Notes: generated by a model not told the origin, from the letters alone. Positions 32,510-41,350 are shown, counted from the stretch's first letter. The stretch: 64,000 nt of DNA from Candidatus Bathyarchaeia archaeon (GCA_050010755.1 JBEKKK010000004.1:32001-96000), one strand, 5' to 3'. Numbers and translations are program-made.

Positions 32510-32800
32510 ATGCCACACTACATTTTGTTGTCAAATCTGACAGATGAAGGGTGGAAGACAGTCAAGGAAAAACCTGAAAGGATAAAGGAAGTCAACAAGG
32601 AACTTGAAGCCTTCGGCGTTCGAGTGATAAGCCAATACGCTCTGCTGGGCCCGTACGACTTCGCAAGTGTTGTGGAAGCTCCAGACAACAAAACCGTAAG
32701 CAGACTTTCTATCGAACTCGGCTCACGAGGAACAATCAAGATTACCAGCATGGCCGCAGTTCCCATAGATGAATTCATTGCCTCATTAAAGAAACGCTAA
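32510..32800 (+). CDS. GYD domain protein
   Basis: YILL..LTDEG...Y.LLGPYDF..VVEAPD. Confidence 0.85.
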   Translation: MPHYILLSNLTDEGWKTVKEKPERIKEVNKELEAFGVRVISQYALLGPYDFASVVEAPDNKTVSRLSIELGSRGTIKITSMAAVPIDEFIASLKKR

Positions 32801-33057: not shown

Positions 33058-33396
33058 TTGACAGATAAAGCCTTCCAAGAGCTGGTGCTTGAGGCTGTAG
33101 ATTCAACTTTGGCTTCCTTGGGCAGTTCAGCTAGACAATCGGTCTATTACCATCTTAAGAAAAAGTTTGACATATCAAGGGACCAAATTCCTGGCCGGAT
33201 TGAAGATTTTGACCGTGGACTTGAACAGATTTTCGGGGTTGGAACACGATTCTTGGAAGTACTGATGATGAAGAAACTCTACGAAGAAATGGGCTCGAAA
33301 GGAAAGATTCTGAGGTTGGATCAAAGAAAAGAATTCAAATTCGTCGACTACATAAAGGCAGCCCAATCGACCTACTCAAAAATGAAGAAAACCTAG
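33058..33396 (+). CDS. DUF3227/NitrOD5-like helical protein, paralog 1
   Basis: LEAVD..L..LG.S..Q...YHL...IP..IEDF..GLEQIFG.G...LE. Confidence 0.7.
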   Translation: MTDKAFQELVLEAVDSTLASLGSSARQSVYYHLKKKFDISRDQIPGRIEDFDRGLEQIFGVGTRFLEVLMMKKLYEEMGSKGKILRLDQRKEFKFVDYIKAAQSTYSKMKKT

Positions 33397-33529
33397 AAAC
33401 CCTTTTCTTCAACTTAAAACACTTTTTTGCAAAACGTGCTGTTTCGCAATCTATATTGCAAGTTCACAAACGTTTTATCAATGCTTGCCAAGTTCCATTC
33501 AATACATAGATAAGCTTGTTGGCGATGAC

Positions 33530-33868
33530 ATGCCATTGACACACGACGACTTTAACAAGATTCTTTTGTCTGCCGTCGACGAAGGCCTATGCTTACTCGG
33601 AGAATCATCCAAACAAGCCATAATCTTCCATTTGGAAGATTCCTTTCAGCTGAAGGAAGAAAACATTCCGTCCAACTTAACAGAATTCAAGAAAGCTCTG
33701 GACAACATTTTCGGTCCAGGTGCGGCTTACCTTGAAAAAATCATCGCGAAACGCCTTCACGAAAAACTCGGCTTGACCTTCGAAGAAGACAAAAGCACCG
33801 ATTTTCTCGAATACGTGAAGATCGCGAAGAGCCGTATCATGAAGGAAGGAGAAATTACCTTAAGATGA
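33530..33868 (+). CDS. DUF3227/NitrOD5-like helical protein, paralog 2
   Basis: LSAVDEGL..LGES..QAI.FHL...IP....F..AL..IFG.GA..LE. Confidence 0.7.
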   Translation: MPLTHDDFNKILLSAVDEGLCLLGESSKQAIIFHLEDSFQLKEENIPSNLTEFKKALDNIFGPGAAYLEKIIAKRLHEKLGLTFEEDKSTDFLEYVKIAKSRIMKEGEITLR

Positions 33869-34024: not shown

Positions 34025-34498
34025 ATGGATAACGGCGCAAGAATCCTAATAGTCGACGATGACGAGAACATAAGAAAAGTGTTGATGGCCATACTTGAAG
34101 ACAAGGGTTACCAAATGGAGGCAGTGGGTTCAGCCATGGAAGCCATAAAAAAAACCGACAAGAAATTCTACAACTTAGCTCTAATAGACATTAGACTGCC
34201 TGACATGGAAGGAATAGATCTTCTAATGAAAATGAGAGAAACAACGCCCAGAATGCGAAAGATAATAATAACTGGCTACCCCACGCTGCAAAATGCCGTG
34301 GACGCCGTCAACAAAGGCGCGGATGCCTACGTAACCAAACCGTTCGACGTTGAAAGGGTCCTGAACACAATAAGCGAACAATTGAGAAAGCAGGAACAGG
34401 AGAAAAAATACAGCCAAGACAGAGTCGCAGAGTTCATTGAAACAAGAGTGAGAGAGCTAGACTTGGAGAAAGAGGTAGCCAATAGCAAGACCCCATGA
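34025..34498 (+). CDS. Stand-alone response regulator receiver protein
   Basis: ILIVDDD, LIDIRLPD phospho-Asp, ITG, KPF. Confidence 0.93.
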   Translation: MDNGARILIVDDDENIRKVLMAILEDKGYQMEAVGSAMEAIKKTDKKFYNLALIDIRLPDMEGIDLLMKMRETTPRMRKIIITGYPTLQNAVDAVNKGADAYVTKPFDVERVLNTISEQLRKQEQEKKYSQDRVAEFIETRVRELDLEKEVANSKTP

Positions 34499-34859
34499 AA
34501 ACTGCCAAGCGGCACTTTCTCTTCATATTTTCGAACAGTAACCGACTTTTCTTCAGCACCAGCCGGTCCGATACCGGTGGCCAAAGTTGACCCCGCGCAT
34601 TTGAAGAAAATAACTTCGCACGCTTAGTAGGTTAGTATACGCAGACAAAACTAATCAATAGAGCAAAGTTACAAGCTCTCCAGCCATCAAAAGAAAAACA
34701 AAATGCATTTCTGACCAACTTGCACAAATACGCATACGAAGCTGCAGCAGTTGGGCCGTCTTACTGCTGATGTTAGCTCTTCCTTAGTGTCTGATACACA
34801 ACACGGAATCTTCTTGCACTGAAAAAACTTCGTCGATCATGCGGAAAATATGTACGTAA

Positions 34860-35393
34860 ATGCTAAAAGCAGTTAGCTCCATGCTATACATGGGAATTGA
34901 TTTGAAGGTGAAGGAAGGAAAAACAACGGATGGCGATTTCGTTCTGCGAGTGAAGATGGGCGAGTACGAAATTGAGGTGGGAGGCACCCGCGACGAAGTT
35001 CTGAAGACCATCGAGGATTTGCCCGGTCTGATCAACAATATTCAAAAAGCTTTCGACTATGCAAGACCCAAAAAGTTTGCGACGCTCACAGTGAAGACAG
35101 AAGCACCAAAGGACGAGAAAACGGTCTCCGAAAAATATCCAAGAATTTCAGGCGCGGAAACTTGTGCCGAGGCTATTTTCAGGATTCTTGAGACTGATTG
35201 GGGAAAGTGGCGTCCGCGCACGGTTGAGGAGTTGAGAGACGCTTTGAAGGCCAACGGTCTGGAGTATCCAGGGCGAACGCTCGCAGGAGTTCTGCTTGAT
35301 CTGGTTAAACAGGAAAGAATTAGGCGTTGGAACACCGACTCGGGCTACGTTTACATTCTGGCAGAAACCGAGGTTTTCCAATCGAAACGTTAG
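34860..35393 (+). CDS. Hypothetical protein: N-terminal beta-hairpin/helix plus C-terminal winged helix (paralog A1)
   Basis: LRVKMGEYEIEV...AETC...W...G.EY...LLDLVK...R...Y.Y; true start may be 34881-34908. Confidence 0.7.
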   Translation: MLKAVSSMLYMGIDLKVKEGKTTDGDFVLRVKMGEYEIEVGGTRDEVLKTIEDLPGLINNIQKAFDYARPKKFATLTVKTEAPKDEKTVSEKYPRISGAETCAEAIFRILETDWGKWRPRTVEELRDALKANGLEYPGRTLAGVLLDLVKQERIRRWNTDSGYVYILAETEVFQSKR

Positions 35394-35472
35394 CAATTGT
35401 ATCATGCCTCTTAAAACCCCGGGTCCAAGTGTTCCTAAATTAACCAAAAGGAAACCATCATGCTCCTGAATC

Positions 35473-35531
35473 GCAGGGAATGATGAAGAACCTTGGCCGA
35501 ATTAGGCCCCAAACTATCTGGAGTTCCCTGC
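35473..35531 (+). ncRNA. Candidate structured small RNA with a C-box (AUGAUGA)
   Basis: 8-bp terminal stem GCAGGGAA/TTCCCTGC, ATGATGA, internal CCGA and GGCC/GGCC stem; D box non-canonical (CTGGA). Confidence 0.3.
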
Positions 35532-35656
35532 TCCCACCTGAAATGTTTTGCACCATTTTCGAGAAGACATGCGCGAGCGTTTCCGGCTAACGAAAAACAC
35601 TCTCATATATCGGCTTCGGAATGTTGCTTAAGCGTTGGAAAGGCCCTATCCGATTT

Positions 35657-35785
35657 ATGGGAAACATTCCTAAGGAAATGGCATGCGACCATTGCGGAAA
35701 AATTCTTCCTGACTCTGAGATAATTCAAATACCTGGACAGGACTTGTGCGAACGGTGCTTTCGGCGCTTGGTCGGTTCGCGCTAA
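35657..35785 (+). CDS. 42-aa zinc-finger microprotein (not in ORF track)
   Basis: MGNIPKEMACDHCGKILPDSEIIQIPGQDLCERCFRRLVGSR; two CxxC motifs. Confidence 0.6.
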   Translation: MGNIPKEMACDHCGKILPDSEIIQIPGQDLCERCFRRLVGSR

Positions 35786-36155
35786 TTTGACCACCGCTCA
35801 TTGTGCATGCAATTCATGTTATGAGGATGCAGAATCGCGCGGTTTACGTTCAGGAGGTTTCAACTCCTTTCCGTTTTGTACTTTGGTATATTAACAGATA
35901 GGGTTGCTTGTTGGCTCGTTACAAAAAGTCACGAGACAGGCAGCACCATAGGCCGTAAACATAGTTCAAAAATTAGGAAAAAACTCATTCCTAATGGGGA
36001 ATCGAACCAACAAGAAAGCTCCGAATGAAATTATCGGGACAAAAATGTTATTACCCTCATTAGAAGGATTAGGAAAGAAAGAGGGGTTTATGCGGAGATG
36101 TTGCCATTTGTTAAGTGTCTGATACGGAAAGCTTTCGACTTGAGGATGGGAACGA

Positions 36156-36629
36156 ATGAACAAGATTGAAGTACGAGTCAAGACGCCATTCGGCGAAGTC
36201 GTTGTCGAGGCTGAAAACGCCCAGGAGATACTGAAAATTCTTGAGGCTTTCCCCGAAGGTTTCATGGAAAAGGTTGGAGGCTTCGTCCAGAACCGTCTGA
36301 TTCCCTCAAACGTTCAACTCAAAGGTATCATTGAGTCCACGACCGAAGGCCCCGTCATCATAGCCCGCGAAAACCTCACCCACTATGAGGCGATAGGCTT
36401 GACCCTGTTCGCATCGGAAGGGAGGAAGAGCACAGCGGCACAGATAACAAAGCTTCTGGAATCAAGCGGAATAAAATGCATGGTCCCCGCGCGCCTAAAC
36501 GAGATGACCAAAAGAGGTCAAGTCTTCAAACCAGACCCGAACAGACCCGAGTTCAAGCTTACCATGCAAGGCGAGAGATGGGTAGAAGATAACGTTCTAA
36601 ACAAGCTCAAGAGCAAAATAGGGCAATGA
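36156..36629 (+). CDS. Hypothetical protein: N-terminal beta-hairpin/helix plus C-terminal winged helix (paralog B1)
   Basis: IEVRVKTPFGEVVVE...GII....EGP...ARLNEM.K.G...FKLT..G. Confidence 0.75.
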   Translation: MNKIEVRVKTPFGEVVVEAENAQEILKILEAFPEGFMEKVGGFVQNRLIPSNVQLKGIIESTTEGPVIIARENLTHYEAIGLTLFASEGRKSTAAQITKLLESSGIKCMVPARLNEMTKRGQVFKPDPNRPEFKLTMQGERWVEDNVLNKLKSKIGQ

Positions 36630-36753
36630 AAAAGCAGGGCAAAGACATCTCGGTTCGTGTCTCTAATATTCTATTCAAATAGCCTTGGGAACAAGTTGAC
36701 AACATTTTTTAGCCATCGCTTGCAATCAGCACTAGTGCAGTGAGGAATGGAAC

Positions 36754-37314
36754 TTGGCTGAAGAGCGTGCTGTATCCACAGGAGAGCCCCCTCGAAGTCA
36801 CAGAGGCGAAGATAGGGACGAGTTGACCGTTGAGATCAGGTATAAGGGTGTCGAGAAAAAGTTTTCTGGAAACGTTGAATCGGTCTGGTTGAGTTTAAAC
36901 TTGTTTTTCAAAGAGTTCTTGCCATCCTTTGAGATTGCACAGAAGTTGATGCTGAACATCGATCTGCAGAATTTGGCCAGAGACACTGAAGGCATTATCG
37001 GTTTCGCGAAGGAAGGGCCATGCCTGGTTGTTCCGAGGAACAAGTTGACGGATAACGAGACCTTGAGCCTGCTGCTTCTGGCAGGTTACCTTGCCCATCA
37101 ATTTGGCTATGCCAGAACGGATGAAGTTTCCAAAGAGGAACTACAAGTCGAGCTCGGCAAAGACGCGAAGATTGCAAGCACCAGGCTGGGAGAACTCGTG
37201 AAGAATCATGTGGCAGCAAAAACTTCCGCAGAAAAATACAAAATCACAACTATCGGCCTAATGCAATTGCAGAAGGATGTAATTCCCAAAATCAAGACAA
37301 GAAAAGGGACTTAG
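36754..37314 (+). CDS. Hypothetical protein: N-terminal beta-hairpin/helix plus C-terminal winged helix (paralog B2)
   Basis: LTVEIRYKGVEKKF...GII....EGP...TRLGELVK...YKIT..G. Confidence 0.75.
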   Translation: MAEERAVSTGEPPRSHRGEDRDELTVEIRYKGVEKKFSGNVESVWLSLNLFFKEFLPSFEIAQKLMLNIDLQNLARDTEGIIGFAKEGPCLVVPRNKLTDNETLSLLLLAGYLAHQFGYARTDEVSKEELQVELGKDAKIASTRLGELVKNHVAAKTSAEKYKITTIGLMQLQKDVIPKIKTRKGT

Positions 37315-37358
37315 CAGGCTTGTTACGAGTCTGCTGTGAGGCCTGGCGTTTTCGACAA

Positions 37359-38225
37359 TTAGGTTCGTCTCTCTAATTGTTCGATTGCTTTCGTCAACAT
37401 GCTGAGAGAGGATATCGTCATATTTGGAACTGCTTTGTGGCCTTTCAGGTTGTCAAGTTTTTGCGACTGGGACAAAAGCGAGTTGGGATCAGATTCTGCA
37501 ATTCTATCTCGTCCCTCTCGGCTGAAAAAGTGTATCGCCTTTGACCCAGCATTCATCGCTCCCCAGACATCTGCTTTCAAGTTGTCACCTACGTGGACGA
37601 CTTCGCACGGCTGCACGCCCATTTTCTTTGCGGCCAAGTGAAAGATCCTTGGGTCGGGCTTGCGTATGTCTATTTCCTCCGAGAATATCATCAATTTGAA
37701 ATATTCGGCTACACCCTCATCGGCCAGAAACTGGCGTAACGCAGCCCCAGAAGTCAAGCCAGTGTTGCATATGAGTCCAATGAGTTTGTGACGTTTCTTC
37801 AAGTCTTCCAGAGCTGTCCGAGCTTCCGGATTGAGGTAAGGAGGGATCTCACGAACACTCAGGTTGTAAGCGGAAACCAATCGTTTTACCCATTCTCGCT
37901 TAAGTTCAAACGAATCTTTTGACACTTTAGCGATGATGAGTCTAATCTGGTCGATGCATGCTAGATCCTTGTTAGTTTCCCAGAGTGTCAGCATCGATGA
38001 AACCATTTCGTTAATAGCCACCGACATCTCTTCAACAGACACTGGGTGGCCAAGGCTGTTCACAGCCCGTACAAGATTCCTACAGCGTGCGTCTCTTCTT
38101 CGAGCACTCGCTCCATCCCTTTCGAAAATCAGGGTCTCCCACAGATCAAAGGTCACTGCTTTCACGGTGTGGTCATCGGCGTCTAAGATACTCACTCTCA
38201 AATTTTGGCTTGAAATTATATGCAA
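37359..38225 (-). CDS. HAD superfamily hydrolase
   Basis: FDLWETL motif I, CNT motif II, KPDPRIF, HVGDNLKAD. Confidence 0.9.
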   Translation of the reverse strand: MHIISSQNLRVSILDADDHTVKAVTFDLWETLIFERDGASARRRDARCRNLVRAVNSLGHPVSVEEMSVAINEMVSSMLTLWETNKDLACIDQIRLIIAKVSKDSFELKREWVKRLVSAYNLSVREIPPYLNPEARTALEDLKKRHKLIGLICNTGLTSGAALRQFLADEGVAEYFKLMIFSEEIDIRKPDPRIFHLAAKKMGVQPCEVVHVGDNLKADVWGAMNAGSKAIHFFSREGRDRIAESDPNSLLSQSQKLDNLKGHKAVPNMTISSLSMLTKAIEQLERRT

Positions 38226-38258
38226 GTTTTTGCCTGAAAAACTTCATTGATAAATCGG

Positions 38259-38663
38259 TCAAGTTGGAGGCCTTTTTTGGGCATATTGGTATCGGCGTGG
38301 TTTTCCTTCCCGCGTTAGTATTCCGTCTTTTACCAGGTCGATTAGGGCGTGGGCGACGGCGGTGCGGTCGTAGTGGAAGCCACGTCTTGCCAGTTCGCTG
38401 TGGACTTCGCTGAGGCCTTTTGTTGTGGAGAACCAGCCTTCTTCCCATAGTTTCTGTATTATGCCCTTGCAGGTTTCTGCCCTTGGGAGTTGCGCCGTCC
38501 TTTCCGTCATAAGCGGTGTCTCTTTCAGCTTGTCCGTTACGGTTGAAAGGATTTTGTCCACCGTCGACTGCAGTTGGTCTTCTTGGCATTCGATTTCGAA
38601 TTCGACTTCTCCTATTTTCATTTTTACTCGTATCGGCGGGTGTGTTTCTTTGTCTGCCAACAT
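38259..38663 (-). CDS. Hypothetical protein: N-terminal beta-hairpin/helix plus C-terminal winged helix (paralog A2)
   Basis: IRVKMKIGEVEFEIE...AETC...GWF...G.HY...LIDLVKDG.L.R.G....Y.Y; AGGTGA RBS before MLADK. Confidence 0.8.
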   Translation of the reverse strand: MLADKETHPPIRVKMKIGEVEFEIECQEDQLQSTVDKILSTVTDKLKETPLMTERTAQLPRAETCKGIIQKLWEEGWFSTTKGLSEVHSELARRGFHYDRTAVAHALIDLVKDGILTREGKPRRYQYAQKRPPT

Positions 38664-38750
38664 GTCACCTTGTTGTTTATTGTATTGTACATCTTGGTCA
38701 TGCACAACACTTAAATATATCTTCCCTAGACAATTGGCTATTGGTGAATC

Positions 38751-39836
38751 TTGGTGATTGAACAATACCCTATTACAACAACACCAAAATATAACTTTCC
38801 ACAATCTACCATGGACACAACATTACCCCATCAGTTCATTGAACTAAGCATTCATTCACTGAGACAGGCACCCAACCGTAGCGTTCAACTAAATCAACAA
38901 GATATTCAACAATTCGACAGCCTGGACGTTCATGAGGAAACATTGAAGCTAAAGCTTCAACCACTGCCCCTAGTCGCATCTCGGCAGGAAAAAATCGTCG
39001 CGGCCGTGGACACATCGACCATAAAGATCGGGGAAACGAGCACGGGCATCATGATAGCCATCCGAGGCGCAAACGTCTGGAAACAGAACAAATGTTATAG
39101 ATACGTTCGGTTTGGTCCATTTATATTCCATGTCACCGAGGAGAACAAGAAGCAAGTTTTTGAAACTTTGGAAAGAACTTATTTCAGCTCCAGTGACGAA
39201 CACAGCCACCAAGGCGCGCCAAGTATTCTCCAGATGCCCATGCGCATAGCGACTCTTCTTGAACGTTGGCTTCAAACTATGGCCGTAAAAACCATAAAAG
39301 ACGGGCTGATACTCTTCGATGGTTCATTGACGGCAGGAACGGCAGAAACTCCAACGAGGCGTATGAAGGAGATTCTTTGCTCGGCAAGAAAGGGAGACAA
39401 TGTTGTTCTTGCCTTTTCAAAAATGACAAATCTAAGGGCGAATGGACACCGGATAACCGAGTTGCTGCCCGATCATAAGCCGCCTTTTCTGCTTGAGACG
39501 GAGGGCCTGAGGCTCAGGCCTCCCATGGTTTTGCTCGGCGAAGTCTATGTGGCCAGGTTGACCAAGGGGAATCTTGCTTTCAGGCTGGACATAGACAGGG
39601 ACGTTCCTTCTGAGCCGCGGATCGAGGCGGTTGAAAGACTTTTGGGAAATGATCTGTTTGCGGAAAGTTATCCTGAAACTCTGCGTTTGGCTCACATTTT
39701 GTGCACTTTCACGGCTAATGAAGTGTTGGCTATGCAGCATTTTGTCACGAGAAGGTTTGGGCTTCAATTGGTTAACAGGCCAGATATGCATAGGCTTCTG
39801 TTCGGAATGTTCGGTAAGGGAGAGGGTTATCAATGA
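38751..39836 (+). CDS. nurA: NurA-family (RNase H-fold) nuclease
   Basis: AVDTS, LFDGSL, AFSK, FRLD, SYPETLRLAH..C; start may be 38811. Confidence 0.8.
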   Translation: MVIEQYPITTTPKYNFPQSTMDTTLPHQFIELSIHSLRQAPNRSVQLNQQDIQQFDSLDVHEETLKLKLQPLPLVASRQEKIVAAVDTSTIKIGETSTGIMIAIRGANVWKQNKCYRYVRFGPFIFHVTEENKKQVFETLERTYFSSSDEHSHQGAPSILQMPMRIATLLERWLQTMAVKTIKDGLILFDGSLTAGTAETPTRRMKEILCSARKGDNVVLAFSKMTNLRANGHRITELLPDHKPPFLLETEGLRLRPPMVLLGEVYVARLTKGNLAFRLDIDRDVPSEPRIEAVERLLGNDLFAESYPETLRLAHILCTFTANEVLAMQHFVTRRFGLQLVNRPDMHRLLFGMFGKGEGYQ

Positions 39837-41299
39837 AGCTCTACAGGAAGGAAGGCAACATTCTTCAGATCTTAAGCTTCCCGGGTGAAACGGTTGAAAA
39901 GGGTGACTACCTGCTCGTGGAAGATGCTGATGCTGGAAGGGCGCTCATCGTGCAGGTCATCGACGTCCAGTTTGCCAGCATTCCAGGCGTTCTTGAAGAA
40001 CTGCTTCGAAGTCTCCCAGACGGGGGAGAGCTAATCAAGGGTGAGGACGTTGATCCTTTGGAGATTGCTCCGCATATCTCGTATATTCAGGACGCCAGTT
40101 TGCTCATCTGTAAAATCCGTGCAACAGCTGAGAATGACGGTTTAAACCCCAGCAGCTCATGGCTTCCGTCACGTTCTCAGTCGACGATAAAGAAGCTTCC
40201 GCTCCCCACACTGCTGAAGCTCGCCAAGATCGACGGCAAACTCCCAATAGTTATAGGTGGAACGAAGGATTCTTCTCTGCTGACGATTGATGCGACGGCG
40301 CTGGATGGAAGGTTGAACATAATAACGGGGAAGAAGGAGACGGGAAAGTCTCACTTGTCCAAGCTTCTGATGGTTAACTTGGTGGGATATAAAGCAACGG
40401 TGGTTGTCTTTGACTTGAACGGCGAATATTTGAGCTTGGGATTGACTGGCGACGGAAAGAGAAACGCCAACTATGACAAGATTCACGTTTTGACGCCTTC
40501 CCAGAACTTCAAACTAGCGCTTAAACAGTTGAACCTGCATGTGATGCTAGGAATTCTGATTCACGCGCTTCACTTGCCGGGAACGTCTGCCCGCGAGTTC
40601 AGGCGGATATGGATAGCGCTCAAAGAGAGGGATAATCTAACACTTCATGAGTTGGGGGAAACGATCCGAAACTGGAACTGCAACCAGCACGTCCGAGACG
40701 CTTTATTCTCCCGCTATCACGCTCTGGTCAATTCGGGAGTCTTCACGGACAATGCTGCCGAGGCAACGTCGCTTGAAGAGTTCCTGCTTAAGACCAGAGA
40801 GCAGGGCGGCGCTATAATATTGAACCTCCGGAATACTTCGTCGATTGACCGGCAGATTGTGGTCGAATATATTCTGGGAAAACTCGTTGAGTGTTTGAGC
40901 AGCGCGAAACTCAAGGCTGTTTTTCTCTTCGCCGAAGAAGCGCATCTTTACCTTCGGGAAACCTACTGGGATGACATCGTTACGCGGATGCGCCACTTCG
41001 GAATCTTCACCACTTTCGTGACCAATCAGCCGGATACGATACGCGAGAACATCTACAGGCAGGCTGACAATATCTTTCTGTTTAACTTCACGAACGAGCA
41101 TGATCTGGACGTGGTTTCCCGAGCCGCCCGGGTGGACGCTGAGACGGTAAGGTCCATCGCTAGAGACCTTCCGCCCCACTACTGTCTGGCCCTCGGGAGA
41201 GCCGTGAGGGACTTTCCCATAGTGGCGAGAGTGAAGGCTCTGGACGTGAAAACAATGGGAGAAACAAGGCTGTTCTTTTCATCCTCGGTCGGCCAATGA
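39833..41299 (+). CDS. herA: HerA/FtsK-like ATPase (HAS barrel plus DUF87)
   Basis: GDYL...QVID N-terminal barrel, GKKETGKS Walker A variant, FDLNGEY, FAEEAH Walker B, RMRHFG, TNQP; ATGA-coupled to nurA. Confidence 0.85.
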   Translation: MKLYRKEGNILQILSFPGETVEKGDYLLVEDADAGRALIVQVIDVQFASIPGVLEELLRSLPDGGELIKGEDVDPLEIAPHISYIQDASLLICKIRATAENDGLNPSSSWLPSRSQSTIKKLPLPTLLKLAKIDGKLPIVIGGTKDSSLLTIDATALDGRLNIITGKKETGKSHLSKLLMVNLVGYKATVVVFDLNGEYLSLGLTGDGKRNANYDKIHVLTPSQNFKLALKQLNLHVMLGILIHALHLPGTSAREFRRIWIALKERDNLTLHELGETIRNWNCNQHVRDALFSRYHALVNSGVFTDNAAEATSLEEFLLKTREQGGAIILNLRNTSSIDRQIVVEYILGKLVECLSSAKLKAVFLFAEEAHLYLRETYWDDIVTRMRHFGIFTTFVTNQPDTIRENIYRQADNIFLFNFTNEHDLDVVSRAARVDAETVRSIARDLPPHYCLALGRAVRDFPIVARVKALDVKTMGETRLFFSSSVGQ

Positions 41300-41350
41300 A
41301 TGAGAATGATGTTTCCAGTTTCTTGTCGCGCACAATATGCATGGGCTAAA

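Follow-up and report, generated by a model that had tools for sequence, protein, structure and literature searches.

HerA-NurA is the archaeal model for DNA-end resection. To our knowledge, it has been studied almost only in thermophiles, and there beside Mre11-Rad50. Here we analyze a stretch of 64,000 nucleotides (nt) from a Candidatus Bathyarchaeia archaeon (GCA_050010755.1 JBEKKK010000004.1:32001-96000), called the window throughout and numbered from its first letter, in which a nurA-herA gene pair lies close to four open reading frames (ORFs), lettered A, B, C and D, that encode hairpin/winged-helix proteins. Across a large part of the phylum, NurA-HerA travels instead with two to four such winged-helix paralogs and with frozen control DNA. 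We hold with high confidence that the paralogs are functionally tied to NurA-HerA. The reading that we favor, with moderate confidence, is that A-D may bind DNA as a regulatory set, probably heteromeric, that is dedicated to nurA-herA. As regulators, they would offer these archaea, which are uncultured and mesophilic, a first candidate for a switch that responds to DNA breaks; as subunits, they would mean that the minimal set of parts accepted for archaeal resection is incomplete.

An initial annotation of the window had suggested that these proteins give an undescribed DNA-binding complex. Full-text literature searches returned no account of winged-helix partners of NurA-HerA. The consulted sections of a NurA review (PMC13748450, 2026) treat Asgard NurA as an open question and contain neither the word "winged" nor such paralogs. 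Both are likewise missing from the consulted sections of PMC13707971 (2026), in which the gene order in Nitrososphaera is NurA-HerA-Mre11.

A winged-helix superfamily beside a divergent NurA-HerA pair

The window is positions 32001-96000 of contig C4 in a Bathyarchaeia metagenome-assembled genome (MAG; G000) of 2.19 Mb in 8 contigs, 93.5% complete. All four ORFs, with the peptides that had been quoted from them, are present: A at 34860-35393 (+), B at 36156-36629 (+), C at 36754-37314 (+) and D, of 134 residues, at 38259-38663 (-). As the initial annotation had described, nurA and herA are coupled and D is divergent from them. The gene for the NurA-family nuclease (38751-39836, +, starting at TTG 38751 or ATG 38811) overlaps that for the HerA-type ATPase (39833-41299, +) by 4 nt at 39833-39836, D lies on the opposite strand, and a control region of 147 nt (38664-38810) extends from D to the ATG of nurA.

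The proposed division into two pairs, A/D and B/C, was borne out, both being homologous. A and D match at E=3e-8 in BLASTP (23% identity over 130 columns) and at 81.9% in hhalign (E=1.1e-5); B and C match at E=0.029 in BLASTP and at 96.3% in hhalign (E=1.5e-9, 149 columns). Between the pairs, narrow alignments made from close relatives only gave hhalign values of just 9.3% and 6.1%. When the alignments were broadened with distant lineages, A/D (49 rows) matched C (59 rows) at 93.5% (E=2.2e-7, 130 columns) and B (68 rows) at 93.0% (E=3.5e-7, 131 columns), scores that have to be read in the light of how the added rows were picked, namely through matches to the same families' own hidden Markov models. 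Both cross-pair alignments are collinear from the hairpin through the winged helix. On these profile comparisons, A, B, C and D are assigned to one unnamed archaeal superfamily, whose predicted parts are an N-terminal module (N-module; a beta-hairpin followed by helix), a connecting linker and a winged helix at the C terminus. B, classed with C, is the best conserved of the A-B-C trio, and D is classed with A.

Structure prediction is consistent with this architecture. The AlphaFold2 (AF2) model of A has a mean predicted local distance difference test score (pLDDT) of 67.0; strands at residues 27-33 and 36-42 and helices at 44-52 and 54-68 (pLDDT by block, 57-73) are followed by a disordered linker and then by a confidently modeled winged helix at about residues 100-167 (pLDDT by block, 79-91). 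This last domain, a three-helix bundle with a beta wing, superposes on solved winged helices and resembles the MarR, PadR, Fur and BlaI type. For B the model has low confidence overall (mean pLDDT 45.3); residues 1-40 alone, a hairpin at 4-19 plus a helix, reach 62-76. The common architecture that had been claimed for the four proteins thus stands on the model of A and on the collinear profile alignments.

The superfamily lies outside the reference families that we searched. Foldseek with the model of A found nothing in the PDB at E<=0.001 (best match DsrD, 6.9e-3), and the profiles of A, B and D had no match among PDB sequences below E=0.5. A-D all stay below the Pfam, NCBIfam and PADLOC thresholds: the best Pfam match of D is Penicillinase_R (18.0 bits, cut-off 22.6), B and C have none at E<=1, and members of the C family weakly match HVO_A0261_N (20 of 59) and HTH_24 (7 of 59) at E<=0.01. 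A search for A homologues returned 838 at E<=0.001 among 1002 candidates, and the B profile found just 77 cluster representatives at that threshold among 1.84 billion proteins.

The nuclease is classed, on its motifs and family profile, as a very divergent NurA. The window protein scores 12.3 bits against PF09376 (E=0.12, cut-off 21), and a six-frame search of the genome with that model gave nothing at E<=1. Its family fares better, 20 of 24 aligned members matching at E<=0.01 (best E=2.4e-8). Searched against the PDB, the NurA profile had a sole match, NurA 2YGK (E=0.17), in which the DGSL and GYP..L..AH motifs are aligned. Residues D67, D170/G171, Y287/P288 and H295, which belong to the motifs AVDTS, DGSL and GYP..L..AH, are invariant in the 24 sequences; we take these motif residues, including the Asp of AVDTS, to be catalytic. 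Its partner passes the cut-off of PF01935 (DUF87; 44.7 bits against 23.2), aligns over residues 167-476 with Sulfolobus HerA (PDB 4D2I, E=6.7e-4) and is the sole DUF87 match in the genome. Its scores stay far below those required of equivalogs of the characterized double-strand-break repair HerA (NF040819, 19.4 bits against 970; NF040937, 16 against 800).

The initial annotation had called this NurA-HerA pair stand-alone. That holds for the locus: the window contains no Rad50-type match, the genome's 24 PF13476 matches all lying outside C4:32001-96000. In the genome, however, this is the sole detected HerA, and an operon on contig C5 (L053 4219-7523, -), beside an EamA transporter gene, encodes Mre11 (406 residues; Metallophos, 53.9 bits) and Rad50 (695 residues; SMC_N, AAA_23, an SbcC Walker B and a weak zinc hook). 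The canonical herA-mre11-rad50-nurA operon is therefore absent here, with Mre11-Rad50 on C5 and nurA-herA on C4.

Another conceivable reading is an anti-phage or mobile HerA-based system with winged-helix sensors or regulators. HerA does partly match the PADLOC HerA models (E from 3.9e-10 to 7e-3) and mad8 (4.5e-13), and it scores 37.2 bits against NCBIfam HerA_antiphage, for which the cut-off is 800. We nevertheless consider a defense system extremely unlikely. The gene is the only DUF87 gene of the genome; HerA is found in 16 of 25 same-family genomes and in most of the class, with an identity that declines steadily with kinship; its flanks are conserved housekeeping genes, and in one relative it is joined to Mre11-Rad50. 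Defense partner genes are missing, and NurA and A-D have no PADLOC match at E<0.01. Ced-type DNA import was rejected separately: CedD (NCBIfam) scores 30 bits against 600, and the loci examined show no sign of the required membrane components.

Linkage of the paralogs to nurA-herA

We compared 34 related loci from species-representative genomes, all of them Bathyarchaeia/Bathyarchaeota MAGs. A is followed by B in all 34 and B by C in 32, the two exceptions ending 2 and 670 nt past B. Stop/start overlaps of 4 nt join A to B in 15 of the 34 loci and B to C in 20 of the 32, as counted from mechanically called starts. D-NurA-HerA follow A-B-C in 12 loci; 12 more continue for at least 3 kb past C without them, and the remaining 10 end at a contig edge. 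NurA precedes HerA in all 12 close loci with NurA, of which 11 reach HerA and one (L004) ends within NurA. Sequence identities with the proteins of the window span 81-93% (D), 82-96% (HerA), 62-86% (NurA), 63-92% (B), 45-85% (A) and 41-78% (C). D-NurA-HerA are flanked by conserved housekeeping genes (Nudix, UMP kinase, Ogg-like and ThiI-like). The neighbors of A-B-C in the relatives (GatE-like, Elp3-like, a zinc-ribbon protein and ABC transporter parts) give no functional hint.

The linkage extends well beyond these relatives. In a sample of 401 genomes from the phylum, G000 among them, B-type genes are carried by 68, D-type genes by 117 and window-type HerA, defined at E<=1e-20, by 133. D and HerA are both present in 97 genomes; in 94 of these, D sits on the strand opposite to HerA at a distance of at most 2.5 kb, and in the other three the two genes are on different contigs. 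A strong C-type gene (among the 150 best matches listed) comes within 6 kb of HerA in 64 of the 88 genomes that carry the two, and B does so in 22 of 40. D occurs without window-type HerA in 20 genomes, and all five of these that were tested have a DUF87 ORF 1.6-2.7 kb from D; in both loci examined, a gene matching Pfam NurA (67.2 and 50.2 bits) lies between the two. By these matches, the tested genomes are assigned another NurA-HerA subclade, closer to the canonical form and accompanied by the same paralogs.

At still greater distances, 20 loci from 18 other families each contain at least two members of the superfamily, in sets of two to four. Eight of them (L054-L059, L071 and L072) are single co-directional operons of abutting genes in the order B-C-(C' or A-like)-NurA-HerA, one of which, L055, runs B-C-A-NurA-HerA-Mre11-Rad50 on one strand. 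Six (L065-L070) have C-type genes, an inverted D and then NurA-HerA. Another six (L060-L064 and L073) combine D with B-C-C', or with two C-type genes in the case of L073; a divergent NurA-HerA beside D was found in the five of these that were tested (L060-L063 and L073). These arrangements imply that the unit consists of two B/C-type proteins and one A/D-type protein with NurA and HerA; G000 retains both A and D. The atlas clusters carry the labels Bathyarchaeota and Nitrososphaerota. We also observed that the HerA beside D in L073 (1-2352, -; G017:C12) has an intein in its DUF87 ATPase (Intein_splicing, 72.2 bits).

Fusion proteins provide a different kind of link. P0161 (466 residues; G005:C16, L074 4776-6179, -) joins a DUF87 ATPase (67 bits), a coiled coil and a B-type C-terminal half. 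It is HerA-type, with no obvious N-terminal barrel, and its gene stands alone between those for prolyl-tRNA synthetase and pyruvate:ferredoxin oxidoreductase. As a separate observation, made by eye, two proteins without a Pfam match, P0129 (298 residues) and P0133 (257 residues), carry a B-type C-terminal half behind hydrophobic, probably membrane-spanning N-terminal segments.

The cluster is thus kept with nurA-herA in relatives across many families of the phylum. Together with the L055 operon that includes Mre11-Rad50 and with the fusion of a HerA-type ATPase to a B-type half, this synteny makes the functional tie very probable, and the superfamily is probably a dedicated companion of NurA-HerA in Bathyarchaeia and in other classes of the phylum. 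The same evidence bears on the suggestion that A-D are ordinary, independent transcription factors whose position beside nurA-herA has no functional meaning. Their generic winged helix, the weak Pfam matches to MarR, TrmB, HTH_24 and Penicillinase_R, and the unlinked position of A-B-C in some close relatives would all fit such factors. The linkage is, however, maintained over many families and over two divergent NurA-HerA subclades, and independent factors would account neither for membership in the operons nor for P0161; this explanation therefore seems to us improbable.

The main rival explanation is that the paralogs assemble into a hetero-oligomer that attaches to HerA, NurA or both and acts on the motor-nuclease by targeting, loading or restraining it on DNA, with promoter binding being secondary. 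The paralogs would then be a trans-acting DNA-recognition module for a HerA/FtsK-type motor, of which P0161 would be a fused example. The placement of paralog genes inside abutting NurA-HerA operons in eight of the 20 distant loci, with Mre11-Rad50 added in L055, the 4-nt overlaps, which suggest stoichiometric synthesis, the high conservation of B and D, and sets that range from two to four but never fall below two members all argue for such subunits. Against them, the fusion is a single cluster, without an N-module and without an adjacent NurA; A-B-C lie at least 3 kb from any D, NurA or HerA in 12 of the 34 close relatives; operator-like conserved DNA is present at each promoter examined; and the winged helix resembles that of ordinary regulators. 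On balance we regard accessory subunits as possible, if somewhat unlikely.

A specific form of the same idea draws on the gamma domain of FtsK, a KOPS-reading winged helix that serves to load a related hexameric motor. By analogy, the paralogs might be HerA loading or DNA-recognition subunits, like an FtsK-gamma module split into two to four proteins. We find this doubtful. If true, end resection in Bathyarchaeia, Nitrososphaeria and related classes would be the work of a complex of five to six components, able to locate DNA ends or specific sites with no direct coupling to Mre11-Rad50.

Control DNA and the regulatory reading

The spacer between D and nurA is conserved more strongly than the protein encoded next to it: its mean column identity is 87% over 13 loci, while the identity of the NurA protein drops to 62%. 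Two TATA-like boxes (TTAAATAT and AAAATATAA) lie in it; each start is preceded by a GGTGA, and the palindrome TTGTACAT-N7-ATGCACAA is present along with more repeats of the TTG..CA type. Within the genome the spacer is unique, with an nhmmer self-match at E=1.2e-45 and the next match at E=1.2. Distant loci carry comparable elements. In six distant D/NurA loci, boxes of the form TTG-NN-CAA adjoin the TATA box, and five more loci have them upstream of D. In the co-directional operons, ACGT boxes, a motif chosen post hoc after inspection, occur between the TATA box and the start 23 times against 1.9 expected over eight operon starts of 100 nt each. The promoter of A offers a third case. Here the conserved box TACGTAAATGCTAAAAG (34853-34869, +), which precedes or overlaps the called start of A, may serve the A(-B-C) operon as a promoter or operator element, and a box of the pattern [AG]C[GA][TC]AAA..CTAAA (TACGTAAA...CTAAAAG), also chosen post hoc, was found upstream of A in 22 of 32 regions examined.

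Structured RNA was considered as an explanation for the conservation of this DNA and was rejected. For the spacer and for 34400-39000, Rfam gave only RT-6, at E=0.41 and at 36661-36724 (-). Folding z scores came to +0.59 (plus strand) and -1.52 (minus strand), and 13 of 200 shuffles did equally well.

Some of the called gene starts need revision. In-frame stops interrupt the upstream extension of D in L009, L016 and L037, so its start is placed, from these comparisons, at ATG 38663 rather than at 38804, which gives the 134-residue protein. The start of A is probably TTG 34902, for a protein of about 163 residues, because the ATG that had been called lies inside the conserved non-coding box and most homologues have 155-170 residues. 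For C, comparison with relatives suggests that translation could begin about 18-22 codons downstream of the called start.

Operator-like DNA that is conserved at promoters points first to local transcriptional control. The suggestion in the initial annotation of a role in chromatin or segregation is unsupported. As general chromatin, segregation or nucleoid-associated proteins, the paralogs would not be expected to be tied so tightly to one enzyme pair or to form so small a family, with B having 77 representatives; the loci examined show no link to SMC, ParA or replication genes either. We consider such a general role very unlikely.

We return to the regulatory set as the favored reading. In this model, D would act as a local transcriptional switch, binding the 147-nt spacer and controlling both its own gene and nurA-herA; its targets would be the TTG..CAA-type repeats and the palindrome around the two TATA boxes. 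A, B and C would be cotranslated and would assemble through their N-modules into a mixed oligomer. This oligomer would bind the same kind of control region, namely the ACGT-type boxes at the promoter of A-B-C, and would thereby coregulate the module. The model builds on observed homology, on the architecture of A, on synteny, on the control DNA and on the fusion; DNA binding, oligomerization and repression or activation by A-D are its predicted part. The hetero-oligomerization through the N-terminal hairpins that had been proposed is hinted at indirectly by the fixed paralog sets and the 4-nt overlaps. A prediction of the A+B+C complex from full-length alignments, run without controls, scored 0.01 against a mark of 0.32, which speaks neither for nor against assembly.

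Several observations weigh against this model. The window shows no enrichment of the motif TTGMRCAW (20 matches, 27.7 expected), and in a scan for 70-nt clusters the spacer was one of nine genome regions with three boxes. Because such counts within the genome are not discriminating, the argument for an operator draws on cross-species conservation alone. Similarly, because the model of B is poor, the shared fold of B and C is deduced from profile comparison. D (81-93% identity) and B (63-92%) are conserved as much as NurA (62-86%) or more, a pattern as compatible with structural partners as with regulators. Plain transcription factors are not usually kept as three or four paralogs in a fixed order over phylum-scale distances, and the fusion of a HerA-type ATPase to a B-type half in P0161 points to physical cooperation with the motor. 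Regulation and accessory function are, however, compatible rather than mutually exclusive.

Other genes and features of the region touch this set by position. A HAD-type hydrolase is encoded between C and D (37359-38225, -; Pfam Hydrolase, 67.6 bits). Of the 34 relatives' loci, 7 have it at that position and the remaining ones lack it, which gives it the look of a passenger gene. The gap between A and B (35394-36155, 760 nt) is unusual, since a gap of more than 100 nt was otherwise seen only in L004 (5.4 kb) and L005 (663 nt). Within it, at about 35678-35785 (+), lies a mini-ORF for a 35-residue CxxC...CxxC zinc ribbon (DUF7685, 22.5 bits against a cut-off of 27). Upstream of A are genes for a GYD-domain protein (32510-32800, +, 101 bits) and a stand-alone response-regulator receiver protein (34025-34498, +, 95 bits), neither of which is among the recurrent A-B-C neighbors in relatives. 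Two paralogous small proteins without a Pfam or NCBIfam match are encoded at 33058-33396 (+, 112 residues) and 33485-33868 (+, 127 residues); in the distant locus L067, a relative of the latter (2238-2561, E=1.1e-6) is encoded directly 5' of an A-like gene. Finally, DNA nearly identical to 34800-41300 occurs in contigs from several peat or wetland metagenome runs, with shares of 0.97 for X7 and 0.89 for X8, neither of which is marked as a possible source; the runs listed include none of RNA.

Comparison with described systems

Defense-type HerA, as represented in PADLOC and by NCBIfam HerA_antiphage, resembles the window protein in being a HerA-family ATPase, with partial matches at about residues 295-472. 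The scores are far under the cut-offs, and there is no Sir2, DUF4297 or other effector partner; herA of the window is instead a core, single-copy and vertically conserved gene.

The winged helices invite comparison with the MarR, PadR, BlaI-MecI and Fur regulators. A-D remain below every one of these family cut-offs, however, and both the N-terminal hairpin/helix module and the B/C-type "GI(I/V)E.T.EGP" segment are without a match. Here, moreover, the genes come as sets of two to four paralogs tied to a single enzyme pair. The likeness to FtsK gamma lies in the combination of DNA recognition by a winged helix with an ATPase of the FtsK/HerA superfamily, and P0161 would represent such a module in cis. 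The modules in the window differ in being separate proteins with an N-module of their own, and the likeness is one of description only.

The closest relation is with the HerA-NurA end-resection systems of Sulfolobus, Pyrococcus and Thermococcus (4D2I and 2YGK), in which nurA is likewise translationally coupled to a HerA/DUF87 gene and the proteins form a HerA hexamer and a NurA dimer. One relative of the window locus, L055, also has the pair in an operon with Mre11-Rad50. The window pair itself differs from those systems in being unlinked from Mre11-Rad50 and very divergent, and in being joined by two to four winged-helix paralogs.

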